A DNA stretch of 64,000 bases from Phycisphaerales bacterium (GCA_027451365.1 DAIDJN010000054.1:36333-100332); one strand, 5' to 3'. Shown: positions 232 to 64,000, counted from the stretch's first letter. Made by a program: numbers and translations. Notes: a model not told the origin generated them from the sequence alone.

Positions 232-1446
232 CTAAGGGATTGGAGGGGGCTTCGTTTCTAAAAAAAACTCAATATCTGTTGATCCTGCGTCGATGCCGTC
301 GACGGCCTTCCCCAGAACACCTTCAGACTGCTGGGCTGCGATATCCGCCTGCTGCGCGTTTGACGCGGCGTCCTCATATTGAACGAATTGATCCTCGGTC
401 AGATTCTCAGTCCCCGGAATCTGCCCGGAGCCCGCAATGGCCTGGGCCGCCGCGCCAGACTGCCCCCCTCCGGCTATCTCGCTCCCCGCGTTGTTGAAGG
501 TATTCAACATTTGCTTGAAATCTGGGCTTGGGTCGGTCACCTGTTTAAACACGGACCGCAGAAAATTGCGGATATCCGGGTCATCAGATTTCAAGACGTC
601 ATCTGCGATCGCCTTGGCGTCTTCTTCGCTGAACTCTTTGCACTTCGGGTCGACCTGCGGATGATCTTTAAGCCATTTCTGAATGAGCTTGCGTACGGCC
701 TTGGTGTAATCCGAATGCTCCGTTGAATTTCCGTGACGAGGAGTTGTGCTGCCCGTGACGAACTTTTTGAAAAACTTATAGCCGGGAGAATCGGAATTGA
801 AGAGATTTGGCTCATTATAGATCTTGCCGGGTATGATGTGATGACCAAATGCCAGCCCGCTCGGATCCACCGAATCCACCGGACCGCTGCCCACAAACCG
901 ATGCGTATTGGCCCCATTGACATAGGAAAGCGGATCCTGCGAAATCCATGTCCCCAAACCTGGCAAATAATTCCGGAAGCGTTCGTCATACAGCCCCGTC
1001 ACCGCATCCAGCGTCATGCCTTGATAAAGGTTGATTACCACAGGCTGCGTACCGGCGGGTGGCGTTGACCAATCGGCGTTCAATACGGTGATCGAACCGT
1101 AAGGCGAATAGACATAGCGTTGCGTAACGCCCCAACTACCGGCCGTGCTGTTGAATCCAACAACGGCGGTGGTATTCCAATTCGCATCCTGCAGGTAATA
1201 GACAGGCAATTCCGGAGATGGAAATTGGGAATCGGAAAGGTAAAACCGGTCTTCGCCACGACGACACAAAGACGCAATGCGGTTAATGGCGGATTTTCGA
1301 TGGTTGAAATTCTCACAGGAGGTATTGGAGGAACTGGATGTATCGCGAGGACGACGGGCAGACAGGATGTCCGCACCACAATTCTGCCGCCGGGGGCTTT
1401 GGCTGGCAAGCAAGCATTCCGAAAACATTTCGTCAGGTGCAACCAA
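232..1446 (-). CDS. Mini-RHS toxin (module A): non-RHS leader, RHS-associated core and His-rich putative nuclease tip
   Basis: Core motifs YYLQDANWN, YVYSPYG, YQGMTLDAVTGLY, RNYLPGLGTWISQDP and cleavage motif VDPSG. The tip has GHHIIP...HGNSTEHSDY (HNH/AHH/GHH-like). Start is TTG 1446 or ATG 1428. Confidence 0.85.
   Translation of the reverse strand: MVAPDEMFSECLLASQSPRRQNCGADILSARRPRDTSSSSNTSCENFNHRKSAINRIASLCRRGEDRFYLSDSQFPSPELPVYYLQDANWNTTAVVGFNSTAGSWGVTQRYVYSPYGSITVLNADWSTPPAGTQPVVINLYQGMTLDAVTGLYDERFRNYLPGLGTWISQDPLSYVNGANTHRFVGSGPVDSVDPSGLAFGHHIIPGKIYNEPNLFNSDSPGYKFFKKFVTGSTTPRHGNSTEHSDYTKAVRKLIQKWLKDHPQVDPKCKEFSEEDAKAIADDVLKSDDPDIRNFLRSVFKQVTDPSPDFKQMLNTFNNAGSEIAGGGQSGAAAQAIAGSGQIPGTENLTEDQFVQYEDAASNAQQADIAAQQSEGVLGKAVDGIDAGSTDIEFFLETKPPPIP
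1309..1374 (-). repeat. 66-bp core shared by all four mini-RHS leaders (copy A), starting with hairpin GC(G/A)GACA-TCC-TGTCTGC
   Basis: Near-identical to 3811-3876(-), 61913-61978(+) and 63308-63373(+). Encodes ADILSARRPRDTSSSSNTSCEN. Confidence 0.95.
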
Positions 1447-1480
1447 ACGCGCGATCCCTTTTCAAGCTGTTCCAACTTGG

Positions 1481-1508
1481 ATTATACCCTTGCTCAAATT
1501 CGCGGTAA
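1481..1508 (-). promoter_or_regulatory. Putative sigma70 promoter of module A (TTACCG-N16-TATAAT)
   Basis: Perfect -10 box, conserved in module D. Homology between A and D begins at this element. Confidence 0.55.
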
Positions 1509-1663
1509 ATTCGTGCCACGGCATAAGGCTCCGATTTTGCTCCGCCTTTCGCCATATTTCAATTTTGTCAAGACGCTTTCCGATCATCCGAACGTGCTTT
1601 ATCTTAGAAATCTGCGGTCCTACAATTGCCGGGCCGGGGCAGCCACAACGCGTCTCCTGGTAA

Positions 1664-2425
1664 TCAGCTGCGCTTTCCAAACCTGTGCGCATCCGCCCAG
1701 AAAAGGACAGCCCCAAGACCCGCAGCCAAACCGGGTACCGCGAACAGCGGAACGGGTACCCTCGCAAAAAAGGCCACGTACAGCACAATTGCCACCGCCG
1801 ATGCAGTCCCCGCCAAAAACGCGTAAATCCCTATGTCACCCATTTTCCCGGTCCTTAGGCGGTATGTGACTATCCCCCAGGGCCCACCGGCCACAGACAC
1901 AATCAGAAACATTGGCACGCCAGCCCGGTCCGTCACAAAGCGAGCCGTGAAGAATGCTGCCGCGGCTCCGACCAGGCAGCCCACCGCGCCAGATAAAACC
2001 AGAATCGCCTTTAATTCCGCAACCCACCACCAACGATTCAAAAAGCGAATGATGCGAATTTGCGATCCGGGCACCAGCAGTCTTATTCCGGAATAAGATT
2101 TGGTCACGTCTTTTGCCCCAAGATGAAATCGGCCGACAGGCAACTTCGCTTGCAGCGGTTCTGATACTCCCAGTACATCAATCGCATCGATCCTGGCCAG
2201 CGGCCACTCAAGCGTGGTGCCATAACGATGCGCGACAGAACAGGTTATAATTTTTCCCGGCTGATCGGCGACCAATCTGTGGACAATCCCCAAGGAAACA
2301 ACCGCACCCGATACCAGAAGGAGAGCAACGGGCAGGTAGGCCCAAAGGCCAGCGCTTATTCGTACACAGGCGACACTCATTATCCGCTCGTCCGCCGATT
2401 CCGTCTGCTGCTTTGCCATTGCCAA
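1664..2425 (-). CDS. Multi-pass membrane protein, possible immunity/accessory protein
   Basis: 253-aa ORF with several hydrophobic segments, located between RHS modules B and A. Confidence 0.5.
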   Translation of the reverse strand: MAMAKQQTESADERIMSVACVRISAGLWAYLPVALLLVSGAVVSLGIVHRLVADQPGKIITCSVAHRYGTTLEWPLARIDAIDVLGVSEPLQAKLPVGRFHLGAKDVTKSYSGIRLLVPGSQIRIIRFLNRWWWVAELKAILVLSGAVGCLVGAAAAFFTARFVTDRAGVPMFLIVSVAGGPWGIVTYRLRTGKMGDIGIYAFLAGTASAVAIVLYVAFFARVPVPLFAVPGLAAGLGAVLFWADAHRFGKRS

Positions 2426-2453
2426 CTCCGCAGTGGGGTTTCACAAGTCTCAC

Positions 2454-2822
2454 TCAACTGAAATAGAGGCCGGAACCGATTGCCCAAGCCGGCCCAGCGA
2501 CCCGCACAAAACAGAGCATTAATAGAAAAGCCGCCACAATATGCCATGCCATCCAGGAAACGGCGGCCCCCTTCGCGGCACTTCCTCGAGTCAGAAGCGT
2601 CGCCGCCAATTCGACCGCTTCGCAGGTCGCGAGCACCGCGACGGCACCAACAATTGCCGCCACGACGCATAACAGTTTCTGCGAGAAGGCACCCGGATCT
2701 ACGCCGTCGCCGCCAAGGATTCCTATAACGGAAGCTTCGGAAAGAAAAAAGGCCCCGGCCTCAATCCAAAAGACCGACCGTTGGCTAGTGAGACACTTAC
2801 GCGGCAGGCTGAAAGTTATCAT
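2454..2822 (-). CDS. Small membrane protein, putative immunity protein for module B
   Basis: 122 aa with about 3 hydrophobic helices, directly downstream of the module B toxin. Confidence 0.5.
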   Translation of the reverse strand: MITFSLPRKCLTSQRSVFWIEAGAFFLSEASVIGILGGDGVDPGAFSQKLLCVVAAIVGAVAVLATCEAVELAATLLTRGSAAKGAAVSWMAWHIVAAFLLMLCFVRVAGPAWAIGSGLYFS

Positions 2823-2934
2823 CGTGCTAAGCCTTTCTACTAAGGCCCCGACCGGGCCAAATAAAGATGTCCTTAAACCCTCAGCGTTGCGTCAAGATCC
2901 CCTCGCCCGCTGGTGGCAGTCCGCTGAAAGTAGC

Positions 2935-3987
2935 TCAATAAAATGATTCATCGACCAAGTTGACGTCCGCCGTATAGCCGCCGAAGGTCCCAGCAGGAGC
3001 AACATTCAGCCTCCACTCTGTTCCACCGGGTTGGGAACGGAGTATGGACGCGGGCTGGCCATTTGGCCCGATGTATGCGATGGGGAGGACTGAATTCGGA
3101 TCTTCTGGCGCGGCGGAGCTGCATGCGAAGAGGTCCATCAACGCAATGCCGTATGATATATAGCGATCAGGAGCAACCAGCATGGTTCGCGCGGGATTGC
3201 CGGGTGCCAGGTAGCCGTCGCTGGCACCGTGGCCGAAATAATAGAACTTAAGAAGATCCTTCGCGGCGGAATATTTGTTCAAATCCGAAACGATGCTTTT
3301 GTCAGTAGCCGCCCCGTCGAACGAGACCATATATCCCGCAGCTTTCGCCAAACTCTGTTCGGCAAAAGCTTTGCTTAGGAACAGGCCAGCTATCGACCAA
3401 TAAAGATCAAAACCAGACAACTGATGCCCCAATTCGTCGCGAGTGAGGCTCCACCCGACGTCGATGACGACAGTGTTTGGGACATAATAATCGCAGCCGT
3501 GTGCAGGAGTTGCCCATTTTTTTATTTCAGCGGGGTTGAGGTGCAGCATCTCCGCCAGGGCTATTGGCGTATCGCCTTTTTGCCATTTCGCAAGCGCCGT
3601 CGCGCCACCCTTGCGATCTATCAGCCAAGCGCCCCCCGCATCCACCGCCCCCACCGGTCCACTCTTCACATAGCCATACAAATTTATTCCGCCGTCATAC
3701 CCGATCGGATCACGCTGTGCCCAACGGCCAAGAACGGCGTTGTATGTCCGATTGCGGACGTAATAAAGCTGCGATTCAGGATCAGAGCGGTAGCCGCAGT
3801 AGATTATTTCATTCCCACAGGAGGTATTGGAGGAAATGGAAGTATCGCGAGGACGACGGGCAGACAAGATGTCTGCGGTCCGGTGACCAGGAGATTTATT
3901 AGTTTGCTCAGATTTCCAGCCCGGGCGGCCGCAACTTCGCGGCTTGGTGCCGTGGTGGTGGTCAAATTGTTTATCCAGTGCGACCAT
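2935..3987 (-). CDS. Mini-RHS toxin (module B): leader, truncated RHS core, LysM-like segment and caspase/CPD-like peptidase tip
   Basis: Core NEIIYCGYRSDPESQLYYVRNRTYNAVLGRWAQRDPIGYDGGINLYGYV...VDAGG. The tip has KGDTPIALA...LNPAEI (LysM-like), then YFGHG and DLFACSS (His-Cys dyad pattern). Confidence 0.8.
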   Translation of the reverse strand: MVALDKQFDHHHGTKPRSCGRPGWKSEQTNKSPGHRTADILSARRPRDTSISSNTSCGNEIIYCGYRSDPESQLYYVRNRTYNAVLGRWAQRDPIGYDGGINLYGYVKSGPVGAVDAGGAWLIDRKGGATALAKWQKGDTPIALAEMLHLNPAEIKKWATPAHGCDYYVPNTVVIDVGWSLTRDELGHQLSGFDLYWSIAGLFLSKAFAEQSLAKAAGYMVSFDGAATDKSIVSDLNKYSAAKDLLKFYYFGHGASDGYLAPGNPARTMLVAPDRYISYGIALMDLFACSSAAPEDPNSVLPIAYIGPNGQPASILRSQPGGTEWRLNVAPAGTFGGYTADVNLVDESFY

Positions 3988-4094
3988 AAATTGCCTTGAG
4001 AAAGGCCGACCTTGCTTTGGTGCCTAAATCATAACGTCGCCAGTTGCTGTGTGCCAAGCCAATGCACGTTCCTTGCCGTCTATTATCCGATATC
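3640..4094 (-). repeat. B/C-type leader plus core repeat (~450 bp), inverted homologue of 61694-62155
   Basis: Long near-identical stretches, e.g. GATATCGGATAATAGACGGCAAGGAACGTGCATTGGCTTGGCACACAGCAACTGGCGACGTTATGATTTAGGCACCAAAG, are present in both copies. Confidence 0.95.
3811..3876 (-). repeat. 66-bp shared core (copy B)
   Basis: GCAGACATCTTGTCTGCCCGTCGTCCTCGCGATACTTCCATTTCCTCCAATACCTCCTGTGGGAAT on the - strand. Confidence 0.95.
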
Positions 4095-4562
4095 GTCCGC
4101 TCACCGCCCATCCTTTTCCTGATACCATTTCCGCCGTTGCCACCACCCTTGCGAAGCGGCCGGTGGGAGCCAGGCGATGCCACCGAGCTTTCCGAATGAT
4201 TTAATCAGTGCCACCGGATTCAGGCCGTCCCCGGAGGTGTGGCGGGCTTTCCTCCGGCAAGCCGACGGTCCAAGGGACATCACCACCCTTCGCCGTGCCA
4301 CACAAACGGCAGGCCGCTGGCCGCCGACCGCGCCATATACAAATTCGAGAAACTGGTCGGGCGACGTCTGCGGACACTGCCGCCTGGCAGGCACGAAAAA
4401 GATACAACATGCTGATCCGAAAGAGCACCGCGAAGCGCACACCCCGGATTTATCGGGCGACTGTCTCTGGTAACCATAATATCCGGATACGCTCTGGCCA
4501 CTTGACCGGCTAAGCCGCATCAGGGCCAGTAAAACCGTCATTGCAGAATTGCCGCTATAGGT

Positions 4563-6323
4563 TTACTTTATAAAAAATGCGACGTGTGCCGCCGCCTTAA
4601 TGGCATCGTGCAATCGCCGCGATTCGTGCGTATAGGACAGTTTGAAGAAACTAATTCCCCCATTGGCAAGCAACGTCAGGTCATGGCGTCCCGGCTTCAA
4701 GCCTGATAGTGTCAGCGTATACGCCCGTGCGGCTGGGTTAATATCGGCGGCCATTTTCCGACCATCCAGCAGCACTGTAAAACTTTGCGGTGCCTTACCG
4801 ATGCACGCCCAGCGGACGTTTACCGTTTGTCCGGTCAGCAGCGCATTGCGATGCGGCGCACCGATTGCAACAACCGTGGTTCGTGGCACCTTTTGATGGT
4901 ACAGGTTGATGCACGCGCGCGTCAGATTCAGATAATAAAATCCCCAGCCGCCGCAGCCGCGGTAAGCGCATGCGGTCAGCGAGGTTGGTTCAATATCATT
5001 GTTGAGATGCGTATTGTAGCAATCGACATAATGATTATGCTCATGTCCGTAGCCTTGATCAATCGGTTGGCCGGCAAATTCATTCCATTGGCAGATGTTT
5101 AGGAATCGCGGACGATAACGCAGTGCGGAATTAAATTCATGGATATATGTTAATCCATTGTCTCTCGCCCGTGCCGACCGAGCCAGCCAGCCACCGTTGG
5201 CGAAATAAGCCGGCGTTATGGTCAAATCTTCGCATTGGCCGTGATGATACACCGGAATCGGATGAATGGAACCATCCATCCAGGACCAGTAGCCGGCGCG
5301 CCCGATTTGTGGCGTATTCTGCAATTGTGATGCCATCCAGCGCACGGTGAAATGACGCGTATTGATCGGAGGTTCACCAGATGCCAGTTTGCCCGCTAAA
5401 AACGCCGGACCAACTCCATTGAATATGATAATCAGCGGCTTTTTGTGATCGTGAAGCCACAATCCAGTGAATTTGGGATTCTGAATATAATTCCGGAAAA
5501 TCCACGCCATCTCTCCGTTAACGGCTCGCGTGGTTGTAGGCGGACCATTGATAAGCCCCAGCAGCAGCGTCACCTGAGGAGTGGCAAGGCCGTGCCGTCG
5601 CATTTGCGCGTAGGTTTTTAACAACGCCGTGGTTGCGGATATCAATTGCCTGGCGGTTGACGGGCATTGTCGGAAACGGGTTTTGCCCCAAAGATTGTTG
5701 GACCAGTCAATGACAATATAGTTAATTCCCATCCGGTCCAGCCACAGCGCATGTTGTCGGATAACTACGCGATTGAAAGAAGAATATTTTCCCAGCAGCG
5801 GAACAGCTTCCGCGGTGTTCCAGGTCATATTTAGCGGCGTGAACCACGGTTCATAATCTATTCCCACCAGATGCCGCCGATGCACAGGCATGATAACTTT
5901 TCTCGCCTTCACCGCTACCAAAACGGTATTGGAAGTCAGCGCGCCAAAGGGCTTCGGCCGCCCCACCGGAAAAATTGCCTTGGCCGGCCTGCTTGCCGCC
6001 ACCGTTATGCGGGCCGTTCCCGTCGTCGGCAGTGGAATGATAAACGTCGTATCACCGGACCGGTTGGTTTCGCCGGCGGCGCCCCATTGCTTTCCGTTGA
6101 CGTATGGCCATAGTTTAACCTTAGCGATATGGACGCCGGAATCAGATCTTAAGCGCGTGACCGTGGCCCTGATATCGACCGTTCCGCCTTCAGATATAAC
6201 GGTGCGGTCCGCAACAATGTGCAGGAGCACTGCCCGCGCAACGCTGCAAACGTTCATCATCAGGGCACCGGTAATGATAAATAATCTGACGCTTAAGAGG
6301 GGCCGCAAAGGTATTGAGAACAT
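4563..6323 (-). CDS. Secreted glycoside hydrolase, GH99/GH71-like
   Basis: Signal-peptide-like N-terminus; PLLGKYSS...VIRQHALWLDRMGINYIVIDW and ICQWNEF motifs; C-terminal Ig-like domain. Confidence 0.65.
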   Translation of the reverse strand: MFSIPLRPLLSVRLFIITGALMMNVCSVARAVLLHIVADRTVISEGGTVDIRATVTRLRSDSGVHIAKVKLWPYVNGKQWGAAGETNRSGDTTFIIPLPTTGTARITVAASRPAKAIFPVGRPKPFGALTSNTVLVAVKARKVIMPVHRRHLVGIDYEPWFTPLNMTWNTAEAVPLLGKYSSFNRVVIRQHALWLDRMGINYIVIDWSNNLWGKTRFRQCPSTARQLISATTALLKTYAQMRRHGLATPQVTLLLGLINGPPTTTRAVNGEMAWIFRNYIQNPKFTGLWLHDHKKPLIIIFNGVGPAFLAGKLASGEPPINTRHFTVRWMASQLQNTPQIGRAGYWSWMDGSIHPIPVYHHGQCEDLTITPAYFANGGWLARSARARDNGLTYIHEFNSALRYRPRFLNICQWNEFAGQPIDQGYGHEHNHYVDCYNTHLNNDIEPTSLTACAYRGCGGWGFYYLNLTRACINLYHQKVPRTTVVAIGAPHRNALLTGQTVNVRWACIGKAPQSFTVLLDGRKMAADINPAARAYTLTLSGLKPGRHDLTLLANGGISFFKLSYTHESRRLHDAIKAAAHVAFFIK

Positions 6324-6489: not shown

Positions 6490-8172
6490 TTACCCGTCTG
6501 GCCAATGCGGAGCATTGGGTTGCTCGGCAAAAAAGGTGTGAATGGCTTTGGCCAGATGACTGTCATTTAATGGGAACGTTTTGCCCACTCTATCGGCATG
6601 CCACCAGCCGGGAAATAGTGCATGGCAGCCATGAGCTACGAATTTTCTCAGATCACTTAACGCCGCATGATAAAGCACTAGACTGTCCGGGGGTTGATTC
6701 GGAGCCGGATGCCACTCGAAAATTCCCCAGTTGTGGCTGTATTGGGCGATCATAGCGGGATTCAGACCGCCAAAACGAGTAATCCCGACATGCCCATTCT
6801 GCGGTAAATAGCCCGACCAGATGGTCGAAGCAGAAGACAAAGCCCGGCGGGCGCCGGCCGGCGCATCCCCCAGTAATTCCGCGGGAATCTGGTGGGCGTA
6901 AAGCAACTCCTTTGGTAAGCCCTGGGCAATAAGCAAACTGGCAACATCCTGAACAAAATGGGCCACTTCACATTCACGGAAACCATACGCCGGACGCGAC
7001 GGATTGCCTGCCGGGAAGGCATTGTTGTCGCCCTGATATGTCCAATCCCATGCCTTCCACCATGGAGAATGATTAATAATGCGCGGCGCGTCAAAACCGC
7101 CGGCGGTAAAACCCTTACCCGAATGTGGCATGGGATTAAAATTCGGATCAGTAATGGGGTCAGCAAATGTGTCTATATCCCAATAGGCCAAGGTCCAGGT
7201 GTGAAAATGTGTACCAAATATGTCGTTAAATGATTTACCCCTTCCGCTGGCGTCATCGGGCGCTGGATCATCATAAAAAGGGCTGACCCGGTGGCCATCA
7301 ACTGAAATAAATGGTCCCGTGATTGACTCCGGTGCGCCCTGTCCGGCATAGCTGGCGCCGGGCGCATAAAGTCCGCGATGTCGCAGCCAGTCACGAAATT
7401 CCGCAATGGCAAATGGGCTGTAGTCGCCGAGATATTCGTTGCTGACCGCGCCGCCGATGGCCAATTCTTCCTCGATGGCAAAATTGATGATGGCAATAAC
7501 TCCGGGATACGCCCGCATAGCCGTTTTAATTTCTTCCGCCCAGCGCGTGGCTTTGCGGCGCATTTCCCCTCGAATTGCCAAAGCGTAACGGGAAGGCGTT
7601 ACAACAAGTGTGTCTCTTCCCTGAGCGGGGCCGGGCATTCCGCGCCACGTTTTTCCATTCAGCCGCCATTGATAATTCCGCAGATCGCCGTCGGGATTAG
7701 TTAATCCCCCGTCATGGGTTTGCATGGCAAAAATCACACCACGATGAATGTTATTTTCGTGAAACACCTTGAGCTGTCGCAAAAGCATCGGCAGATTTCC
7801 CGCAGCATAGATGGATGCGAATCCCAATTTGTTGTAATTATTGCCGGGACCGAATTGCTTTTTCATTTTCGCAATCTGCTCGCGATACTGGTCGTCCGTT
7901 GTGCTCTGGCGATCAAGCCCGCTTTCCCATATTGGCATGATGTAAAAGGAATTGCTGTGATCCGATTTTGGCAGGGCATTGGCGGAGCCAGTCGCATTAT
8001 TTGTCGAAGCCATAATCGCGGTTACCGAATCGGCAGCAGCCCCAGAGCCAAAAGTATTGTTTATCCCGGCCACGGAGGTAAGTATCACTCCGGCCGAAGC
8101 CGCCAGGAGCTGGCGACGCGTCATATCTTGAGCGCCGGTGGTGCCTTGCGTGTTCTTCGTTTCATTCGCCAT
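6490..8172 (-). CDS. Tat-exported glycoside hydrolase-like protein (GH42-like TIM barrel)
   Basis: TRRQLL twin-arginine signal; DYSPFAIAEFRDWLR motif; ATG 8172 preceded by AAGGTGG. Confidence 0.6.
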   Translation of the reverse strand: MANETKNTQGTTGAQDMTRRQLLAASAGVILTSVAGINNTFGSGAAADSVTAIMASTNNATGSANALPKSDHSNSFYIMPIWESGLDRQSTTDDQYREQIAKMKKQFGPGNNYNKLGFASIYAAGNLPMLLRQLKVFHENNIHRGVIFAMQTHDGGLTNPDGDLRNYQWRLNGKTWRGMPGPAQGRDTLVVTPSRYALAIRGEMRRKATRWAEEIKTAMRAYPGVIAIINFAIEEELAIGGAVSNEYLGDYSPFAIAEFRDWLRHRGLYAPGASYAGQGAPESITGPFISVDGHRVSPFYDDPAPDDASGRGKSFNDIFGTHFHTWTLAYWDIDTFADPITDPNFNPMPHSGKGFTAGGFDAPRIINHSPWWKAWDWTYQGDNNAFPAGNPSRPAYGFRECEVAHFVQDVASLLIAQGLPKELLYAHQIPAELLGDAPAGARRALSSASTIWSGYLPQNGHVGITRFGGLNPAMIAQYSHNWGIFEWHPAPNQPPDSLVLYHAALSDLRKFVAHGCHALFPGWWHADRVGKTFPLNDSHLAKAIHTFFAEQPNAPHWPDG

Positions 8173-8249
8173 AAATCGCCACCTTTCTTTTTGAGTATTT
8201 GCGGGCCATGACCAACGCTGCAACCAGCAGGGACAACAATGTGATCAAA

Positions 8250-12034: not shown

Positions 12035-12035
12035 T

Positions 12036-15375: not shown

Positions 15376-18300
15376 TCAGCGTCCGGCAATTCTCCGTCGT
15401 GCCAGCAGCGCCAACCCACCAACAGCAATAATCGCCAGTGCCGCGGGTTCAGGCGTAGACGCCGGTGTAACCGTGAAACTTGCCTGCGGCGTATTGAATT
15501 CAAGCTGAACGGCAAAGGGATTGGTACCGGGGACGATGTTGCCGATGGAGAACGTCGTCGCACCGCCGCCCGCCAGGCTGCTGAAATCAAACGTGTTGGT
15601 AGAGCCTGCATCGCCGCCGAAACCCGTATATGTGGTACCGTCCACGGTTATCGTCAGGTTGTCATAGCCGGATCGGAACGCATCAATTTTTGTAAACAAT
15701 GCCCCGGATGTCATGGTATAAACCAGCGTTTCCCCGGCCGGATCGATCCAGCTTCCGCTGTAAACGTTGCTGAAACTTTCGCCGCCGTTGCCAAGGGCCG
15801 TGCCTATTTTCGCTGTGCCCGGACTGCCGCCGCCGCCGGGCGTGAATGCGAAGTTGGACAAAATAACTTCGTTGGGCTGACTGGCACCGGGACCATAGCT
15901 GACATTAAAGCTTCCAAAGCCATCAGTCGTTTCCACCGTTCCGCCGGAAATCGCGTTGCTGAAACTGCCGGTGATTCCGCCGGTGGCCTTAATGATGGTG
16001 AAAGAGTCCCCGGATGTGATGGTTTTCTGGAAATTATTAACGAATTGCACACCAAGCTGGCCGCCAGCGGTCATGGTCCCGCCGATCACCAGGTAATCGT
16101 AACCGTTGCTGGCGGTACCCTGGCCGGTACCCCCAATATGGAAATCAGTAGATGCGTTTGAGCTTCCGGAGTAATTATTGACGATAGTAAAAACACCGGC
16201 CACCCCGCTAAGTCCGCCACCGTATTGCGGATTGCCGGGACCAAAACTTCCACCCGTGTTATAAAAGCTTCCGGAAAAACTTCCGCCGTCGCCACCGCCG
16301 AATCCATATCCTCCACCCAGAGTAAAATTGCCGCCAAATAGAACGCCGCCACCACCACCACCACCACCACCGCCACCGCCACCACCGCCAAAATAAGTGA
16401 CGCCCGCAGTTTGGGTGTAATTGGTATGCACGTAAAGCGTCCCGCCGTTGGTCGCCTCCAGCGTACCTGAATTCGTGACCGTGCCGTAAATATTCAGCGT
16501 CTGGCCATTTACATCGGCATCAATCGTGCCGGTGTTGACCAGGCCGACATTGTAATTTCCGGCAGGATCTCCAATCGTGCCGGCACCCTGAATAATACTG
16601 TTGTTGGTCAGTGAATCGGTGCCCTGGAAATCGGCACCCTGCAATAGAGCGGCACTCCCGTTGTTATCATTCAGTTGAAGGACGCCACTGCCGTTCAGCA
16701 CGACATTTCCTGAAATGGACAGTAGTTCACCGCTGTGAAAAATCATGGTGCCGGAATTGTTGATGGTTCCTTTGAGCGTCAGTCCGCCACTGTAGATGCC
16801 GCTGTTTAATGCGTTTAAATTTCCGTTCAGCGTCACTGGCGTCGTGGTTCCATCCAGCGTGCCGGAGTTTGCGTAAATTTGGGAATTTGCATCGGTGGTC
16901 AGCGTTCCGCCCTGCACGATACCGCCATTAAGCGCTACACTTCCGCCGCCGGTGGCCGACAGGCTGCCACCCAGAATCGTGGCCCGGTCAAGATTCAGTA
17001 CCGAGCCGGTGCCGGAGGCCAGAATGTTGCCACTGCTGTTGGCAATCAGACTGCCGCCAAGGTCCAGAGTAGCGCCACCGGTGGCCTCAAGCGTGCCGGA
17101 ATTGGTAATACCGCTGTTTCCGCCATTGGAATAGATGTAAAGGGTTGCACCGCTGACATTTGCATTGACCGTGCCGGAATTATTTAACAGGAAGCTGTTG
17201 GAAAAGCCGACGATACGGCCCGCTCCGGAAATAGTCGCTTGGTTGGTAAGCGTACTGTTAGAATCGTACCCTTCCAAATAACTTCCCGAAGCCATGATTA
17301 TACCGCCTGAGCCGGAAAGCGTCGTGGCACCGCGAAAATCAACGGTGCCCGCGCCATAACCGCCGCCAGCCGGGAGCGTGGAAAGCGATCCATCAAGCGT
17401 GATATTTCCGGAAAGATCGAGTGTGTCCGACGGGTTGACGGAAAAATTCGATGCCAGCGTCAGAGGCGAAACCGACCCATCGAATCGCGTCGTCTGATAG
17501 TGGCCCGAACCAAAAATCTTAATGACACCACCCGCCACCTCGTTTAACGTTCCCCCCTGCACTTGTGACCCGTTCAATGCCACAACCGAGCCGGTGCCGC
17601 TGGCCAGTATGGTGCCACCCCCATCGCCGATAATGGCGTTGGAGGCAAATGCCAACGTGCCGCCGTTAGTCGCCTCGAGTGTGCCGGTGTTGGTGAAACT
17701 GTTCGCCCCACCCAGCAGGAGTGTCTTGCCGGTAGCGTTGGCATCCACGGTGCCGGAATTCGCGAAACTGTTAAGATCAAAATTCGTCGCGCTGGAATTT
17801 CCCACCGTGCCCGAACCTTGAACTGTTCCTTGATTAATCAGCGAATCACTGATGTTTGTTGGGCTGCCACCCAGAAAAGCCGTATTTCCGCCATTGTCGG
17901 CCAGGGTAATCGTTCCCTTGCCGGCAATGGTCGTAGGCCCGTTGATGTACAGCCAGGTGGCGTCACCGGTGCTGGTAATGTTGATCTGCCCGTTATTGGT
18001 AATAGTTCCCTGCAGCGTCAGCGAATACGCCGCCGTGGCGGATCCGCTGTCGGCCACATTAATTGTTGAGTTATTCGTCAGCCCGCCGGTGGGCGTGCCA
18101 TCCAGAGTGGCCGAGGTAGCCACGAAGGACCCATTGCCCGCCAGGGAACCTCCGCCAACCGTAATGGCGAACAACTGAACCGTTGTGCCCGAATCGGCCT
18201 GAATTGTGCCGCCACCGTTGGCCAGCGGCCCTGTCCCGGTAAATTCCAGTGAACCATTTTGCACTTCCACCAATCCGGCATTGGTTAAATCGGCGGCATA

Positions 18301-19923
18301 AAGAAAACTGCTGCCTGTGGTGTTCATATGGCCGCCAGTCAGGATGTCAATGGAATCGTTGAGATTTGAGGCGGCATTCTGATTTAATGTTCCGCCGGCG
18401 TACACGGTGATGGTTCCACCATACAGATCTGCATTGGTGGTCAGGGTTAATGTACCGGTGCCAGCAGCGCCGGTCGCGGTGCCGCCGACAAAAATGGACT
18501 TTGCACTTATAGTCCCATCAGAAGTTACATTTCCGTTAGAACCGGCTTGCGCGCCGATAAACATTTGATTGATTGCGACATCGGCCCCGGTACCTAAAGT
18601 CAGACTGCCGCTGCCGGTATTCCCGACAATCAGATTATTGTTGGGGACATCCAGAGTTTGTCCAGACCCCAGCGAAAGACTTGTCCCCAGCGGACCGCCG
18701 GTGTCAATGATCAGGTCTGAATTGGTGATGCTTAATTTACCACCGGTGAACACAATAGTTCCGCCACCGTTGGTCAGGGCACCGGTATCCAGTTCGCCGC
18801 CGGAAATGGTCAATGAAGCTCCAGTGGCGACATTTGTGGTGCCGGAAATGGTCAATATCTGGCCGGGAACGGTTTGCGGGGTCGCGCCGGTATATGGAAC
18901 GTATGTAGTGGAATTCAGCGTGACCGCCGAGCCGAGCAGTCCGCCTCCGCCAACGGTTAAATTGCTGTTGGTTAAATCCAGTGTGCCGCCGGCAAAATTC
19001 AGCGTGCCGGAATTGATGATCGATGCGGTCCTTAGTTCTCCACTGTTTAAAGTGACCGTGGATCCGCTGTAAATGGTGGTCGCACCGGTGACCTGTACGC
19101 CATAGGAGCTGCTTCCATACAGGCCATTGCTGCCGTTAATAAGCAATGTGCCCGCACCACCGCCGCCGATGGAGCTGCCGCCCACATACAGATTTCCGGT
19201 CACATTTAGGCCCGATGCGCTTCCGCCGCCACTGCATCCTCCGACATTGCTCATTTCAATATCTACTTTGCCAATCGAACCGGTCAGCGCGGCAATATCC
19301 ACATCTCCACCGACGCTGGCGTAACCCGAGTTAACGGTTAAGGTGCCATTGCCGCCATAGCCGACAGCCATCGATCCGGAAAGCCGCAAGGCGTTACCGC
19401 CAAAACTGGTGCCCGGGTTGCCAATGTTCATAACGCCCACACTGCCGCTGCTTTCGCCAATGGTGGCGTTCACGCCGGAAACCGGTTCAAATCCGCTGGT
19501 TCCCAGGGTTAAGGTTGCCGCAGTGTCGGTGGCACTATCGCCGACAACAAGCGATTCATTTCCTGAACCGATTCCACCTGTTCCACTCAGGGTGTAAATA
19601 TATCCACCGGACGCGAGGCTGACGGTGTTGTTATCCACAAGCATCTGGCTGGAATAGGTGGCGGCACCAAGCGATACGGTATAGGCGCTTCCCGTACCAA
19701 GATCGAACACCGCGATATTCGCCGCCGTCGGCACGCTGCCCGTGCTCCAGTTGCCGGTGGTTTGAAACATGCCATTGCCCGCATTGCCGGTCCAGTTATC
19801 GGGTGTCGACGGCGTCACCGACGAGGCGATGGCCGGTCCGGAAATTGCAATTGCGGCGGCGAGGCTTAATAAACCAAGGCGACGGCCGGAAATTTCGGAT
19901 TTAAACGACAAGTCGGTTCGCAT
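15376..19923 (-). CDS. Large Gly/Thr/Ser/Asn-rich beta-repeat surface protein with PEP-CTERM sorting signal
   Basis: Signal peptide; repeated NSGTLEATNGGTL and autotransporter-passenger-like strands; C-terminus TPEPAALAIIAVGGLALLARRR. Confidence 0.9.
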   Translation of the reverse strand: MRTDLSFKSEISGRRLGLLSLAAAIAISGPAIASSVTPSTPDNWTGNAGNGMFQTTGNWSTGSVPTAANIAVFDLGTGSAYTVSLGAATYSSQMLVDNNTVSLASGGYIYTLSGTGGIGSGNESLVVGDSATDTAATLTLGTSGFEPVSGVNATIGESSGSVGVMNIGNPGTSFGGNALRLSGSMAVGYGGNGTLTVNSGYASVGGDVDIAALTGSIGKVDIEMSNVGGCSGGGSASGLNVTGNLYVGGSSIGGGGAGTLLINGSNGLYGSSSYGVQVTGATTIYSGSTVTLNSGELRTASIINSGTLNFAGGTLDLTNSNLTVGGGGLLGSAVTLNSTTYVPYTGATPQTVPGQILTISGTTNVATGASLTISGGELDTGALTNGGGTIVFTGGKLSITNSDLIIDTGGPLGTSLSLGSGQTLDVPNNNLIVGNTGSGSLTLGTGADVAINQMFIGAQAGSNGNVTSDGTISAKSIFVGGTATGAAGTGTLTLTTNADLYGGTITVYAGGTLNQNAASNLNDSIDILTGGHMNTTGSSFLYAADLTNAGLVEVQNGSLEFTGTGPLANGGGTIQADSGTTVQLFAITVGGGSLAGNGSFVATSATLDGTPTGGLTNNSTINVADSGSATAAYSLTLQGTITNNGQINITSTGDATWLYINGPTTIAGKGTITLADNGGNTAFLGGSPTNISDSLINQGTVQGSGTVGNSSATNFDLNSFANSGTVDANATGKTLLLGGANSFTNTGTLEATNGGTLAFASNAIIGDGGGTILASGTGSVVALNGSQVQGGTLNEVAGGVIKIFGSGHYQTTRFDGSVSPLTLASNFSVNPSDTLDLSGNITLDGSLSTLPAGGGYGAGTVDFRGATTLSGSGGIIMASGSYLEGYDSNSTLTNQATISGAGRIVGFSNSFLLNNSGTVNANVSGATLYIYSNGGNSGITNSGTLEATGGATLDLGGSLIANSSGNILASGTGSVLNLDRATILGGSLSATGGGSVALNGGIVQGGTLTTDANSQIYANSGTLDGTTTPVTLNGNLNALNSGIYSGGLTLKGTINNSGTMIFHSGELLSISGNVVLNGSGVLQLNDNNGSAALLQGADFQGTDSLTNNSIIQGAGTIGDPAGNYNVGLVNTGTIDADVNGQTLNIYGTVTNSGTLEATNGGTLYVHTNYTQTAGVTYFGGGGGGGGGGGGGGGVLFGGNFTLGGGYGFGGGDGGSFSGSFYNTGGSFGPGNPQYGGGLSGVAGVFTIVNNYSGSSNASTDFHIGGTGQGTASNGYDYLVIGGTMTAGGQLGVQFVNNFQKTITSGDSFTIIKATGGITGSFSNAISGGTVETTDGFGSFNVSYGPGASQPNEVILSNFAFTPGGGGSPGTAKIGTALGNGGESFSNVYSGSWIDPAGETLVYTMTSGALFTKIDAFRSGYDNLTITVDGTTYTGFGGDAGSTNTFDFSSLAGGGATTFSIGNIVPGTNPFAVQLEFNTPQASFTVTPASTPEPAALAIIAVGGLALLARRRIAGR
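16345..16389 (-). repeat. Poly-glycine trinucleotide tract (15 GGY codons)
   Basis: gccgccaccaccaccaccaccaccaccgccaccgccaccaccgcc on the + strand. Confidence 0.9.
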
Positions 19924-58018: not shown

Positions 58019-58253
58019 GGAGAAATCTCCTTATAATACAACAGGCCAGATTGCGGCCAAGCCAACATAAGGGCCGGCCGGATACTGCACCGCGCATACC
58101 GACGGTATGTTTGCCGCCGCATACGGCTGCTGCTGTTTAGTGGCAGGCGGCGGCGGAACGGTTTTGGAATGCGGTTCTGCGACAAATTAAAACCGGTCGC
58201 CATTGGCGCGGCACTAAACCATTGCGTGGCAATGGAGGTCGCTTAAGCAGGCG

Positions 58254-59323: not shown

Positions 59324-59375
59324 GAGAATCAAGCTGCATTGACCTTGGCGTGCAGGCACGGCATGATGATAGACC

Positions 59376-59981: not shown

Positions 59982-60015
59982 TCGCAATTCGCGGCCACGG
60001 TCTTGGCCGACCGGA

Positions 60016-61296
60016 TCAACCACCGCCCTTGTCTGACGGGCGGGCTTTGCGGGCATCGGCCGAAATAAACAAATTGCTTAAAATTGTTTCGCTGCTGACT
60101 TCTTCGCCGCTTAAGGCCATGGCCAGGAGTTCTCCGCCCAGCACATCGGGCGCGATAATCAGGTCCGGCCCCACCCGCCGCACGCGCGTCAAATTTTTGC
60201 TGTTCTTCACCGCCGCTACGGTGCGGGCCGTACCGCCGAGTTCCTTGGCGGCCAGCACAATAAAGGCGTTTTCACTGTCATCAACCCGCAGGGCCAGAAT
60301 GGCCAGCGCATCTTTGCAACCCGCGGCGCGCAACACTTCAACATCGGATGGATCGCCCACCATCAGGTCCGCGGGATCCATCCAGGAATTTTCCGGCGGC
60401 GCGGGCATGATGACAGTCACCATCATTTTTCGATTCTTAAGTTCCCGATAGGAATTCTGGGCCAGGGCATTGTCGCCCGCGATAATGTAATGGTTCTTTC
60501 TCATACGTTTTTTTTCTCCTGCCAGCAGGCGCTGCATGCGGCCGTTGACCAGCGGCACAATCACCGCGGAAATGGATGTGGCAAAAACCGTGATGCCCAG
60601 CACAATAATCGACATGACAAACAGCCGGGCGTCATCGCTTTTGGGAACAATATCCCCGTAACCGACGGTAGACAGTGTGACAACGGAAAAATAGAGCGCC
60701 GTCGCCAGATGCTTGATAGGTGGATTGAACCCCTGGCCCAGCACATAGGAACCAAAGACGGCATAACCCATCAGAAGAATGACGCTTACCGCGCTGAACA
60801 ATGTGCCCGCCGCCACGCTGGACCGTGAAAACGCCCGATGAAATACCAGAAGACTGACCAGAAGAATCGCGTTAAAGCAGGTCAGCAGCCCCCAACTCAA
60901 ATGGCTCTGGTGGAGCAGCAGCGCCAGTGTCGCGCCCGACAGCAGCAGCGCCACCGCCCAGGCGAAACGGGATCGGAATGCCAGCCCGAAGGACATGATC
61001 AAAATCATGACGCCGGCCAGCGCCTGCGGAATTCCCGTTAGCCCATGCAGGAGTGGCAGTTGCCCGACATGCAGTACCGGCTTGATGTGCATGAGCGCCG
61101 GGATGCCGGGCAGCACGCGACCAAGACCATCAAGAAGATTCCAGAGTCCCAGCAGGCCGACCGCCAGAGCTACGGGAATTTGTGGAAACCAGCGGTCTGA
61201 TCGGAAGCGTTTGCGGGCGCTGCGGAACCATGGGGCAAGGGTGCCCCATATTGACGGGCTGGAATCCGCGTTCTGGTTGTCGAAAATTCGCGGCAT
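60016..61296 (-). CDS. kch: Voltage-gated potassium channel (Kch-like) with RCK/TrkA-N domain
   Basis: YFSVVTLSTVGYGD selectivity filter; RCK motif DDSENAFIVLAAKE. Start at 61296 is inferred. Confidence 0.88.
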   Translation of the reverse strand: MPRIFDNQNADSSPSIWGTLAPWFRSARKRFRSDRWFPQIPVALAVGLLGLWNLLDGLGRVLPGIPALMHIKPVLHVGQLPLLHGLTGIPQALAGVMILIMSFGLAFRSRFAWAVALLLSGATLALLLHQSHLSWGLLTCFNAILLVSLLVFHRAFSRSSVAAGTLFSAVSVILLMGYAVFGSYVLGQGFNPPIKHLATALYFSVVTLSTVGYGDIVPKSDDARLFVMSIIVLGITVFATSISAVIVPLVNGRMQRLLAGEKKRMRKNHYIIAGDNALAQNSYRELKNRKMMVTVIMPAPPENSWMDPADLMVGDPSDVEVLRAAGCKDALAILALRVDDSENAFIVLAAKELGGTARTVAAVKNSKNLTRVRRVGPDLIIAPDVLGGELLAMALSGEEVSSETILSNLFISADARKARPSDKGGG

Positions 61297-61693
61297 CTTG
61301 GCCTGTTCCGGAATACGCGCTTTGCTGCAAACTAATCCCGTGGCCAGGCAGCGACTGGCGAACCGCCAACAGAGCGGCAATCCATAGGTACCAGAAACCA
61401 CCAAACTTGCAACAGCGAAAACTTCACAACTCATCGCCTGAATTGGGTATTCAATAGACTCAACCGGCCTGCCGGGGTTGGTTTGACGGGGTCTGGGTAA
61501 CATCAGGATATTACGGCACAGGTGCCGTAACGCAATAGGGGGCATTTCTTATTCGCGGGAGCGATTTTAGAAATATTTTGGAAATCTTAGCATTCTGGCA
61601 ATCTTGCCCGCCTTGAACGAACCGCTTCACTTGAATACTAGGGCTCGGTGCTTCAAGTTTTTCTTCCGTATAGGCTGCGGGCAGACGGAATCG

Positions 61694-62155
61694 GATATCG
61701 GATAATAGACGGCAAGGAACGTGCATTGGCTTGGCACACAGCAACTGGCGACGTTATGATTTAGGCACCAAAGTAAGGTCGGCCTTTTTCAAGGCAGGTT
61801 TATGGTCGCACTGGATAAACAATTTGACCACCACCACGGCACCAAGCCGCGAAGTTGCGGCCGCTGGCGCGATGAGTCTTGGCAGACGGGAAAATCTCCT
61901 GGTCACCGGACCGCAGACATCCTGTCTGCCCGTCGTCACCGCGATATGTTCAATTCCTCCAATACCTCCTGTGCGAATGAAATAATCTATTGCGGCTACC
62001 GCCTTGATCCTGAATCGCAGGTTTATTACGTCCGCAATCGGACATACAACGCCGTTCTTGGCCGTTGGGCACAGCGTGATCCGATCGGGTATGACGGCGA
62101 AATAAATTTGTATCAGTACGTCGAACCCTCACCGGTGGGTAAGGTTGATCCAAGC
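61694..62155 (+). repeat. B/C-type leader plus core repeat (copy C), including the 66-bp core at 61913-61978
   Basis: Inverted homologue of 3640-4094. Confidence 0.95.
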
Positions 62156-62434
62156 GGCGAATTGACTATTGGGGCTGTTATAAAATGGTTTATTGCAACC
62201 TACCGCCAGGCGGTTCCTGACGGCGAATTCGTGGATGCGACCTACGCCGTACCATCAATTATGCGGCTTTGGTTAAACAAGGAGGCGGCCAACCGCATGA
62301 TTTATGATTTGGACCATTGCATTGCTTGGGAGAAGGACCCCTTGTACAAAGGATTGCTGAATATGTCACAAGGGCAACCGCTGACGCCCGCCGAACACGG
62401 GGCGGTCCAAGACATGCTCGAGCAGCGTAAATAG
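61802..62434 (+). CDS. Mini-RHS toxin (module C) with uncharacterised helical tip
   Basis: Same N-terminus as module B (MVALDKQFDHHHGTKPRSCGR); RHS core up to VDPSG; tip of about 90 aa. Confidence 0.8.
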   Translation: MVALDKQFDHHHGTKPRSCGRWRDESWQTGKSPGHRTADILSARRHRDMFNSSNTSCANEIIYCGYRLDPESQVYYVRNRTYNAVLGRWAQRDPIGYDGEINLYQYVEPSPVGKVDPSGELTIGAVIKWFIATYRQAVPDGEFVDATYAVPSIMRLWLNKEAANRMIYDLDHCIAWEKDPLYKGLLNMSQGQPLTPAEHGAVQDMLEQRK

Positions 62435-62539
62435 AAAACCGGCGTAAACGGTCCGGGCGCTCAGCGTGTCGTCATCGGTCAAGGCGGCGAGGTCTATTAC
62501 ACGCCCGACCACTATCAAACTTTCATTCAAGTGAAGTAA
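62435..62539 (+). pseudogene. C-terminal remnant of a barnase/RNase Sa-type ribonuclease toxin
   Basis: Manual translation KTGVNGPGAQRVVIGQGGEVYYTPDHYQTFIQVK* has the R...YYT.DHY.TF signature. It lies in frame directly after the TAG of module C. Confidence 0.8.
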
Positions 62540-62555
62540 AGGGAGACGATCCATT

Positions 62556-62939
62556 ATGACTGATATATCAGCATTTTCATTCGACACGAGTTCCCTGAAC
62601 CTAGACCCAAAGGCTGACTTCATTGCCAAGGTGCCGACAGGAATAAGTGATCGAAAAGCCTTCCTCGAAGTGATGCGCATGATACTGCAATTCCCCGTCT
62701 ATTTTGGCAATAATTGGGATGCCTTAGCGGATTTCCTCAGGGATTTGTCATGGATTCAACAGCGTCGCGTTGTTATCCTGCATGATGATATCCCACCGTT
62801 GGATTCGAGCTCTATCTCCACGTATTTGGACGTCCTCGCTGATTGCGTGCGCGACTGGAAGCCGGGCGAGGACCATGAGTTAGTAGTAGTATTTCCTTCG
62901 GGGGCTCGTGATGCCATAAGCAAAATTGTTAGAAATTAA
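62556..62939 (+). CDS. Barstar family ribonuclease inhibitor (immunity)
   Basis: LQFPVYFGNNWDALADFLRDLSW motif; GGGAG RBS. Confidence 0.92.
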   Translation: MTDISAFSFDTSSLNLDPKADFIAKVPTGISDRKAFLEVMRMILQFPVYFGNNWDALADFLRDLSWIQQRRVVILHDDIPPLDSSSISTYLDVLADCVRDWKPGEDHELVVVFPSGARDAISKIVRN

Positions 62940-63171
62940 CCGCCGCTATAGCGGCTGTCCCGGCCCAGGTGTGCCGTGCAAAGGCGAGGTGTCCCAGCGA
63001 GTGCAAGACTCACCCCGGTAAAGGTCGTTGCGACCGGGAAGCTGTCCCAGCGGCGGCGAAAGCAAAATCCATCTTCCGCAGTCGGCTGATTACCCCAGTT
63101 TGCCGACTGTTGCGCAATCTGGATTTTTTTGGCAACAGGCGACAAATTTTCGGTACCCGGTCCGAGAAAAT

Positions 63172-63495
63172 ATTTGCCGCGAATTTGATCAAAGGTATAA
63201 TCGAAGTTGGAACAGCTTGAAAAGGGATCGCTCGTTTGGTTGCAACTGACGAAATGCTTTCGGAATGCTTGCTTGCCAGCCAAAGCCCCCGGCGGCAGAA
63301 TTGTGGTGCAGACATCTTGTCTGCCCGTCGTCACCGCGATATGTCCAGTTCCTCCAATACCTCCTGTGAGAATTTCAATCATCGAAAGGCCTCCTTCACT
63401 GGCGTTGAGTCTTCGTGTAGTCGCGGCGAAGACCGGTTTTTCACTCCCGGTTCGCAACTTTCATCTTCTGACTTGCCAGTTTATTACTTGCAGGA
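63172..63495 (+). repeat. A/D-type leader repeat (copy D), including the 66-bp core at 63308-63373
   Basis: Inverted homologue of 1190-1510. Confidence 0.9.
63174..63201 (+). promoter_or_regulatory. Putative sigma70 promoter of module D (TTGCCG-N16-TATAAT)
   Basis: Near-consensus -35/-10 boxes, conserved with module A. Confidence 0.6.
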
Positions 63496-64000
63496 TGCGG
63501 ACTGGAATGTAACGGCCCTGATCACATTCGACAGCGGCACGAATACCTGGGCGGTTTCTGAACGGTTTGTCTTCGATAGCTATGGGCAGGTCCAGACCTT
63601 CAATGCCAGTTGGCAGGCAGCGACTGATACGCTTGGTTGGCAGGTATTGGCGCAGGGCCGATTCCGCGATTCGACCACGGGATTGGACGATGGCCGGGCC
63701 AGAATTTATTTCGCCAGTCTTGGCCGTTGGATTAGCGAGGACCCTGCGGGTTATATCGATGGTGCCAGCACCTATCAATATGAGGTTGGCGGACCCGTGG
63801 GTTCGGTGGATCCGATGGGTCAGAGTTGGAATCCAATGAGTTGGGGCTGGGTACAGACGACCGTCGGAGCGGTTTCTGGGGCGGCTACCCACAGCTATTA
63901 TTACGTCAAATCTCTGCCATCGGCGTATTGGCAAACAGCCTCTGATGGCGAACAGATTAGCTCGGCCACCGGCTACGTAGACAGCCTGACGAACGCGGTA
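63236..64000 (+). CDS. Mini-RHS toxin (module D), runs off window
   Basis: Not in the ORF track (no stop in the window). Manual translation from TTG 63236 / ATG 63254 gives MLSECLLASQSPRRQNCGADILSARR...VYYLQDADWN...FDSYG...LGRWISEDPAGYIDGASTYQY...VDPMG plus a tip. Confidence 0.88.
   Translation, partial: MVATDEMLSECLLASQSPRRQNCGADILSARRHRDMSSSSNTSCENFNHRKASFTGVESSCSRGEDRFFTPGSQLSSSDLPVYYLQDADWNVTALITFDSGTNTWAVSERFVFDSYGQVQTFNASWQAATDTLGWQVLAQGRFRDSTTGLDDGRARIYFASLGRWISEDPAGYIDGASTYQYEVGGPVGSVDPMGQSWNPMSWGWVQTTVGAVSGAATHSYYYVKSLPSAYWQTASDGEQISSATGYVDSLTNAV

Follow-up and report, generated by a model that had tools for sequence, protein, structure and literature searches.

The window studied here is a 64,000-nucleotide stretch of DNA from Phycisphaerales bacterium (G000:C54:36333-100332, where G000 is the source genome, 93% complete, and C54 the contig). 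It carries four short open reading frames (ORFs), A to D, each of which joins a leader to a remnant of an Rhs core and a polymorphic C-terminal tip. Judged from sequence comparison, these ORFs appear to belong to orphan Rhs arrays with a dedicated, selected leader, a family that is real rather than artefactual and broader than first seen. Our analysis established the anatomy of the leader, selection on its reading frame and on residues 2-6, and the swapping of tips between leaders. It suggests that expression of the orphan cassettes is maintained, most likely so that immunity proteins are produced.

Results

Anatomy of the leader and selection on its start

The portable leader is predicted to consist of a sigma-70-like promoter, an untranslated region (UTR) of 22-46 nt with a Shine-Dalgarno (SD)-like site, and an in-frame start, M-V-A-[LI]-[ND]-[EKD]. 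The promoter and start sit 50-120 codons upstream, in the non-Rhs leader. Promoter scores of at least 9/12 were found in 22 of 27 copies, which are not independent of each other, compared with 1.7% of random windows and 7.1% of sites upstream of long ORFs. This is consistent with the initial annotation, which had proposed dispersed toxin-immunity cassettes with promoter-like signals of their own. The top sigma-70-like scores (10/12) per scanned region include sites directly 5' of all four cassettes in the window, and an additional 10/12 site is located at 842-814, inside tip A. The -10 element of cassettes B and C had been placed at GATAAT; the site is TTGGCA-N18-TATGAT, and GATAAT lies ~50 nt further upstream. 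Homology had been described as beginning at the -10 element, which holds for the pairwise comparisons only; other copies share up to several hundred bases more upstream.

The ratio of nonsynonymous to synonymous change (omega) was calculated by the Nei-Gojobori method on paralogs that are not independent. In the 18 B-type copies, codons 2-6 are highly constrained (pN 0.010, pS 0.291, omega 0.03). This signal is missing from the A-type copies (omega 0.67, n=9). Codons 7-37 are near neutral, with an omega of 0.60 and no codon-position bias in the B-type and 1.09 in the A-type, and the Rhs cores have an omega of 0.14 (27 copies). Purifying selection in the leader is seen at codons 2-6 of the B-type, and the remainder is under weak constraint at best. 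The initial annotation had looked for a signal in the shared peptide ADILSARRxRDxxxSSNTSCxN. With an omega of 0.41 for these codons, the box that encodes it was rejected as a conserved peptide; in addition, the peptide is restricted by lineage, and the box is a point at which leaders and cores are exchanged. Selection acts instead on the N-terminal hexapeptide, a part that the annotation had not singled out. Variants of it such as MVRNAD, MAMSCE and MVTPAE are tolerated. The codon of residue 6 is GAA in 26 cases and GAG in 0, so the bases themselves are also constrained, as is usual in initiation regions.

All four leader frames in the window are open through the ADILSARR peptide, as first described, but this openness is not beyond chance when judged by stop codons. 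Stop-creating substitutions in B-type leaders match the neutral expectation (2 seen, 2.6 expected), and 1 of the 27 box-bearing copies has a leader stop (C31). The evidence for the frame therefore rests on indels and junctions instead. Length variants of the box (6 of 27) are all multiples of three; upstream, 5 of 6 non-coding indels are not. Among all fetched loci, Rhs sequence follows 73 of 91 leaders, a fraction biased by the fact that the loci were mostly fetched by core, and it is in frame in 71 of these 73, across 16 remnant-length bins. In a leader-first sample of 28 distinct matches across the family, Rhs sequence follows 22 and is in frame in 21.

Several other readings of the leader were considered and rejected. 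Antisense leader frames have an omega of 0.71-0.82 and contain stops. A hairpin that hides the start codon is not supported, with pairing no better than in shuffled UTRs (mean z -0.2; 15 of 27 UTR families). Rfam gave 0 matches in the window and in G000:C19:74378-76058. In the part of a study of E. coli available to us, FLWYRK are the first residues that destabilise a protein, and next to acidic residues they become stabilised (PMC12258705); by these rules, a classical ClpS-type N-degron reading of the hexapeptide is without support.

Distribution in one Phycisphaerae family

We sampled 45 genomes of the family, 62-97% complete; those relatives that have names are metagenome-assembled genomes of Phycisphaerae/Planctomycetota. 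At the DNA level, the congener G001 was the sole genome besides G000 in which the B leader was found. In other genera, short Rhs ORFs start alike, with MVAINE, MVALNE, MVAIDE or MVALDE. Among the 88 family cassettes with enough upstream DNA, [AT]TG-GTN-GCN is present in the Rhs frame in 47, compared with 3 and 1 in the other frames, and in 1 of 16 control cassettes from other families. When starts were picked by the -10 box alone, V was found at position 2 in 58 of 79 (background 6%), encoded by all four Val codons, and A at position 3 in 47 of 79; the background for VA is 1.2%. A pattern of the -10 box, 22-46 nt and MVA[LI][ND][ED] gave 133 matches in 20 of the 45 genomes, with some starts counted twice, compared with 6 in the reversed control. 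In 130 genomes from 20 other families the same pattern was at chance (19 matches, 20 in the control), and the conserved start, as far as these searches reach, is confined to one Phycisphaerae family. Two leader-like matches outside the family are located at G086:C116:21413-21465 and G064:C9:14524-14585. The leader UTRs fall into 27 families at 65% identity, and the -10 box, spacing and hexapeptide are kept throughout. The strict N-terminal motif is also present in 62 of 120 database homologs of ORF B.

Two genomes of genus g3 (G056:C4 and G003:C35) have near-identical Rhs arrays, and leader UTRs of genera g2 and g6 are identical (G018, G020). Sequence identity of this kind suggests recent transfer of arrays.

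Leaders, cores and recombination in the source genome

TIGR03696 matched 39 times in G000. One match lies in a 4994-aa giant of another lineage and 38 in frames of 165-687 aa; these 38 short-frame cores are spread over 26 loci on 24 contigs, as counted from the table of matches. The initial annotation had proposed a genome-wide check of whether an Rhs core always follows the leader. Rhs sequence comes next after 37 of the 49 leader matches in G000; 5 run into a contig end, and 7 have no Rhs, two of them fragments of 28-35 nt. Dead-end leaders make up 18 of the 91 in the fetched loci and, by inspection, ~13 of 21 matches in G001. In G001 (C58, C33) some leaders also run in frame directly into ORFs that are not Rhs and have signal-like segments, one of them lipoprotein-like; these fusions look like deletions of remnant and tip. 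Decayed cassettes are found at C84, C39:59126, C62:46884 and C31 of G000.

Two leader types had been distinguished. The A/D pair (87% identity over 337 nt), the B/C pair (92% over 395 nt) and the ~66-nt box that they share are real, but G000 also carries leaders starting MVRNAD, MVAFAQ, MVALSD and MAMSCE, giving at least six types. The box is present in 27 copies, always inside a leader (18 B-type, 9 A-type). Chimeras join an A leader to a B core (C26, C62) or a B leader to an A linker (C56, C67), and the same tip has different leaders in other assemblies: the C53 tip matches P0069 at 99.6%, and the C56 tip matches P0078 at 98.6%. From these sequences, the ADILSARR box appears to be a site of DNA crossover at which leader and core types are recombined.

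REP-like (repetitive extragenic palindromic) repeats are found within leaders. One class of B-type promoter has, just 5' of it, a YD-repeat remnant from an Rhs body (E 0.001-0.006; G000:C16:21190-21405, also G001), and this promoter may therefore have arisen within Rhs coding sequence. A single GxxExxY gene (G000:C59:67516-67866) has short repeats on both sides, and similar short repeats are located inside several leaders and may belong to the same repeat family.

The cassettes of the window

The four ORFs lie where the initial annotation had them, and all match TIGR03696 above the cut-off. ORF D is incomplete because the window ends at the end of contig C54. The features are as follows.

1-87, minus strand: 5' end of the partner (putative immunity) gene of A, 380 aa, which extends left of the window; weak SMI1/KNR4 (E 0.002, under the cut-off) and tetratricopeptide repeat (TPR) matches
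232-1446, minus strand: ORF A, predicted frame
232-855, minus strand: tip A, 207 aa; AHH match at E 0.028, under the cut-off; atlas leads Tox-GHH2/SHH/AHH, scores <0.9
856-1203, minus strand: Rhs core remnant of A (A lineage); TIGR03696, and tblastn to longer Rhs in relatives
1309-1374, minus strand: shared ~66-nt box of A (ADILSARR..NTSC), putative leader/core crossover point, from its copies in the genome and the chimeras
1429-1446, minus strand: start codon TTG and hexapeptide of A, M-V-A-P-D-E, from leader comparison
1509-1481, minus strand: promoter-like site of A, TTTACC-N17-TATAAT, 10/12 match
1664-2425, minus strand: 253-aa ORF within the array, possible orphan immunity gene, no Pfam match
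2454-2822, minus strand: partner of tip B, 122 aa, two hydrophobic segments
2935-3987, minus strand: ORF B, predicted frame
2881-3630, minus strand: tip B; early stop at 2935-2937, homology runs on to 2881
3628-3813, minus strand: Rhs core remnant of B, ~60 aa (B lineage); TIGR03696 and tblastn
3811-3876, minus strand: shared box of B, from leader alignment
3970-3987, minus strand: start codon and hexapeptide of B, M-V-A-L-D-K; constrained across the 18 B-type copies (omega 0.03)
4057-4028, minus strand: promoter-like site of B, TTGGCA-N18-TATGAT, 10/12 match
4350-4463, no strand: 114-bp element; second copy in the same orientation, 89%, ~1.2 kb left of the window
61731-61760, plus strand: promoter-like site of C, TTGGCA-N18-TATGAT, 10/12 match
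61802-62434, plus strand: ORF C, predicted frame
61802-61819, plus strand: start codon and hexapeptide of C, M-V-A-L-D-K, from leader comparison
61913-61978, plus strand: shared box of C, from leader alignment
61976-62158, plus strand: Rhs core remnant of C; TIGR03696 and tblastn
62159-62434, plus strand: tip C, 91 aa; similar-length homologs in relatives
62435-62540, plus strand: barnase-like C-terminal scrap, 35 codons, after the stop of C; PF00545 at E 1.2e-4, just under the cut-off, obtained by reading the stop as X
62556-62939, plus strand: intact barstar-family immunity gene (PF01337, E 5.8e-18), no intact RNase before it
62961-63173, plus strand: repeated spacer 5' of A-type leaders
63174-63201, plus strand: promoter-like site of D, TTGCCG-N16-TATAAT, 10/12 match
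63236->64000, plus strand: ORF D, predicted frame
63236-63253, plus strand: start codon TTG and hexapeptide of D, M-V-A-T-D-E, from leader comparison
63308-63373, plus strand: shared box of D, from leader alignment
63470-64000, plus strand: Rhs core remnant and beginning of tip D, cut at the contig end

Tip A is probably a nuclease of the HNH/AHH type, an assignment to be taken as a lead only. The early stop in tip B comes 18 codons before the point where a copy from another assembly (96% identity) ends. The atlas lead for tip B is DUF6345 (score 0.91), and rows with a caspase-like fold are weak, none at E<=0.001. In an AlphaFold2 (AF2) model of mini-protein B, the leader is disordered and the remnant of low confidence (predicted local distance difference test, pLDDT, <55 for leader and remnant), and residues 119-253 are confident; a fold search with mini-protein B gave no match at E<=0.001.

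Two ORFs of ~580 aa adjoin cassette B (4563-6323 and 6490-8223, minus strand), the first with a weak Ig-like match and the second with none. A 1515-aa protein (15376-19923, minus strand) has a C-terminal PEP-CTERM motif and no other family match.

Tips and partner genes

Among 31 tips, one has a relevant Pfam match, the RNase scrap of C. Partner genes match Sel1, RDD, WD40 and barstar, and weakly SMI1/KNR4. We examined 32 downstream ORFs for 33 listed cores. A hydrophobic 19-mer, indicating a membrane or signal segment, is present in 26 of the 32, compared with 35% of long frames; 6 have no hydrophobic segment. The truncated cores carry the DPxG..DxxG motif, and two putative catalytic Asp residues are kept in 86 of 87 true cassettes (85 of 88 in the raw scoring, in which one miss is a false core and another keeps the Asp on inspection). 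Tip-versus-tip comparisons are unsaturated in 6 of 19 pairs (omega 0.17-0.31), and these are too old to judge selection in the orphan state.

Full-length donors, array ends and delivery systems

The initial description of a cage replaced by a leader was overstated. Relatives have ordinary orphan arrays behind full-length rhs, with remnants of ~20-500 aa. In G053 and G056, a full-length rhs (2100-4300 aa) and its partner are followed by tandem leader-remnant-tip-partner units, often with an empty last leader, and five such units are in tandem in G049:C119. The leader is not the native N-terminus of full-length Rhs proteins, which start MSKCPQ, MSYQPN, MAANLN, MSYYYS or MVQAKAK. The N-terminal half of full-length B-lineage Rhs is present in 8 of the 45 family genomes, and it was not found in the incomplete genomes G000, G001, G006, G018, G020 and G049. 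A full-length-like A-lineage segment is present in G053, G056, G003, G046, G047 and partly G012; it was not found in G000 (a 77-aa scrap only), G001, G006, G020 or G049, and G018 has pieces only. Genomes without a detected full-length donor still have 6-64 cores. The giant Rhs of G000 (>4994 aa, C82:79293-94277) has many Ig/cadherin-like repeats and runs off the contig; next to it is an integrase-core transposase-like ORF (labels by inspection).

The 114-bp direct repeat (4350-4463; G000:C54:35021-35134) brackets the B-A array, and copies are located at array ends on C6, C16, C56 and C57. The arrangement around the B-A array, a single case, fits integration of a circle. Ten Rhs arrays have at their 3' side a non-coding unit of ~340 bp in 1-5 tandem copies, which in every case lies on the strand opposite to the array; the unit also occurs at 4 further places (examples: G000:C19:74378-76058, C83:31283-32569, C56:34152-34988, C68:26277-27154). 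It contains a REP-like palindrome, and this palindrome has 12 copies in G020, several at array ends. An IS4-type composite element was rejected, as the array-end repeat is this non-coding tandem unit and not a transposase; PF01797 (HUH transposase) has no match in G000. A REP-like palindrome is present 1.5-3.2 kb downstream of 9 arrays, yet also at ~15 other places. G000 also has a CRISPR-like (clustered regularly interspaced short palindromic repeats) array with a 36-nt repeat at C42:78943-79845.

The metagenome runs that contain window DNA are from mine drainage, in one study. In contigs from four of its runs, tip A and its partner are uncovered and their flanks covered; many contigs diverge right after core B, and one joins core B to the region behind A's partner. 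These contig-level observations were not used as evidence.

No VgrG or PAAR gene is present in the window, as first noted: the sole VgrG match of G000 is on another contig, and PAAR has no match in this 93% complete genome. The VgrG lies in a cluster resembling a type VI secretion system (T6SS; G000:C41:74936-101548), with TssC, TssF and ClpV-like neighbours by inspection. VgrG was found in 22 of the 45 family genomes. It is missing in all 5 genomes of the leader-rich genus g2, all 3 of g7, G053 and G012. The tube protein of extracellular contractile injection systems (eCIS; PF06841) was found in 1 of the 45, a genome without leaders, and in 0 of 14 control genomes. In these genomes, the leader appears to track neither VgrG nor the eCIS tube.

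Discussion

We propose that the cassettes form expressed orphan toxin-immunity arrays, in which the leader keeps immunity genes on while recombination swaps the tips; in our judgement this has slightly better than an even chance of being correct. Orphan tip-immunity modules of the C-terminal-displacement type would gain a portable expression leader. The leader would transcribe and translate the remnant-tip ORF, so that the open frame carries ribosomes through to the partner gene and the downstream immunity gene stays expressed, presumably by the avoidance of polarity and by translational coupling. Homologous recombination through the shared box and the core of 100-200 bp would move tips together with their leaders. 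Arrays may reach new sites as circles that integrate at shared repeats. The cell would gain a dispersed immunity library against Rhs tips from community members, even without a full-length donor. The hexapeptide, we guess, may set initiation and the N-terminal fate of the fusion. An expressed library would explain the frame, the promoter, the envelope partners, the orphan barstar and the dead-end leaders.

Several observations weigh against an expressed immunity library. The omega of 0.03 at codons 2-6 is left unexplained, because avoidance of polarity needs an open frame and not specific residues. The nine-base indels in the box may reflect slippage on a nine-base repeat. The cores remain under purifying selection, the putative catalytic Asp pair is kept almost throughout, and 14 of 16 testable tips are full length, with early stops only in window B and C26. 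Such intact cores, Asp pairs and tips exceed the needs of an immunity library, and constant replacement from a donor pool could yield them. With genomes 62-97% complete, full-length donors may also be unassembled.

The leader-remnant-tip fusion may instead itself be an active, cage-less effector, in which the hexapeptide would be a minimal tag for export, chaperone or vesicle loading along a lineage-specific route and the remnant would give a self-cleavage site. The hexapeptide residues are conserved across the 27 UTR families in which all else has diverged, the Asp pair is kept and the tips are mostly intact, 6-64 cores persist in genomes without a detected full-length donor, and envelope-type partners suit toxins that act from outside. 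However, no carrier co-occurs with the leader, given the distribution of VgrG (absent from g2, g7, G053 and G012) and of the eCIS-type tube (1 of 45). As an export signal, six residues would be very short, and they tolerate the variants named above; the leader and remnant of the AF2 model are below a pLDDT of 55, and some remnants retain ~35 aa of a roughly 95-aa plug domain (PMC8636562). We regard active cage-less effectors as rather unlikely. Somewhat more doubtful still is the specific proposal that M-V-A-[LI]-[ND]-E is an N-terminal tag by which a lineage-specific partner exports or loads cage-less Rhs tips. If it were true, the orphan cassettes would give these bacteria dozens of toxins for direct deployment, a second arsenal that depends on neither the YD cage nor the T6SS.

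The cassettes could alternatively act inside the cell as type II toxin-antitoxin modules, like Salmonella rhs-CT/rhsI, kept by addiction or for growth control. An internal promoter and start that yield toxic products have a precedent there, in the part of that study available to us (PMC7043789), and cassette A resembles, by weak matches, a cytoplasmic nuclease with an SMI1/KNR4 partner. The 26 of 32 partners predicted to be membrane-bound or exported would not neutralise a cytoplasmic product, though, C has a barstar but no RNase, and tips B and C26 have early stops; we consider intracellular toxin-antitoxins improbable. A similarly low probability attaches to a silent recombination reservoir or selfish repeat family, whose promoter-like sites and starts would be passengers homogenised by gene conversion. 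The near-neutral leader codons 7-37, the neutral stop counts, the many dead-end leaders, the REP-like repeats and the one YD-repeat remnant would all be expected of it. Against it, the frame is maintained at many independent junctions, the -10 box, spacing and hexapeptide are kept despite 27 diverged UTR families, and the leader pattern far exceeds its reversed control (133 and 6 matches).

Comparison with known systems draws on the portions of the cited sources available to us. Like the rhs-CT/rhsI and cdiA-CT/cdiI displacement arrays, the cassettes have a variable core remnant, a polymorphic tip and a partner in tandem, in relatives behind a full-length gene (PMC2935791, PMC3150448). Tips of those orphans are likewise exchanged via core recombination, and orphan immunity can be expressed there (PMC2935791, PMC3150448). 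Orphan cdiA-CT/rhs fragments are generally without translation starts, although one Serratia fragment has one (Jackson 2009, PMC2935791; Poole 2011, PMC3150448). Here, unlike in those orphans, most cassettes have a promoter-like site, an SD-like site and a conserved in-frame start, and the arrays are dispersed over 26 loci, combine two core lineages within one locus and persist without a detected full-length donor. The Salmonella type II toxin-antitoxin rhs-CT/rhsI is also an orphan tip with cage-independent transcription and translation signals, which are predicted in our case (Starsta 2020, PMC7043789). There, the P2 promoter and the CTG start are part of the conserved core, 89 nt upstream of DPxGL (PMC7043789), whereas promoter and start here are in a separate non-Rhs leader, with many fusion points and mostly envelope partners. 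Rhs-linked poly-immunity arrays resemble ours in that several immunity genes, of which some have putative promoters, follow rhs in a row, and they give broad protection (10.64898/2026.07.13.738213). Unlike ours, they are T6SS-linked single clusters in Proteobacteria, with no conserved translated leader in the portions seen. Domains of the PIX, WHIX and RIX type are tens to hundreds of residues long and tied to the T6SS. They too place a conserved N-terminus on polymorphic toxins (10.1101/2023.07.16.549128, PMC12135965), but ours has six residues and shows no co-occurrence with VgrG. No description of such leaders was found in the literature searched, which did not cover most subscription literature, such as a 2026 Current Biology article on poly-immunity. 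Relative to known orphan Rhs arrays, the dedicated promoter-like site, SD-like site and selected in-frame start thus appear to be new.

How undelivered orphan polymorphic-toxin modules persist is a standing question in the parts of these studies we could consult (PMC3150448, PMC7043789). In one family, most orphans appear to have expression signals of their own, with the frame and six N-terminal residues selected across hundreds of cassettes. An immunity library, an internal toxin-antitoxin and cage-free export become distinguishable via simple leader mutants. The cassettes also bring to light a large pool of tips and immunity proteins that have yet to be characterised. Should the hexapeptide serve as an export tag, this would suggest that Planctomycetota have a delivery route not described so far.

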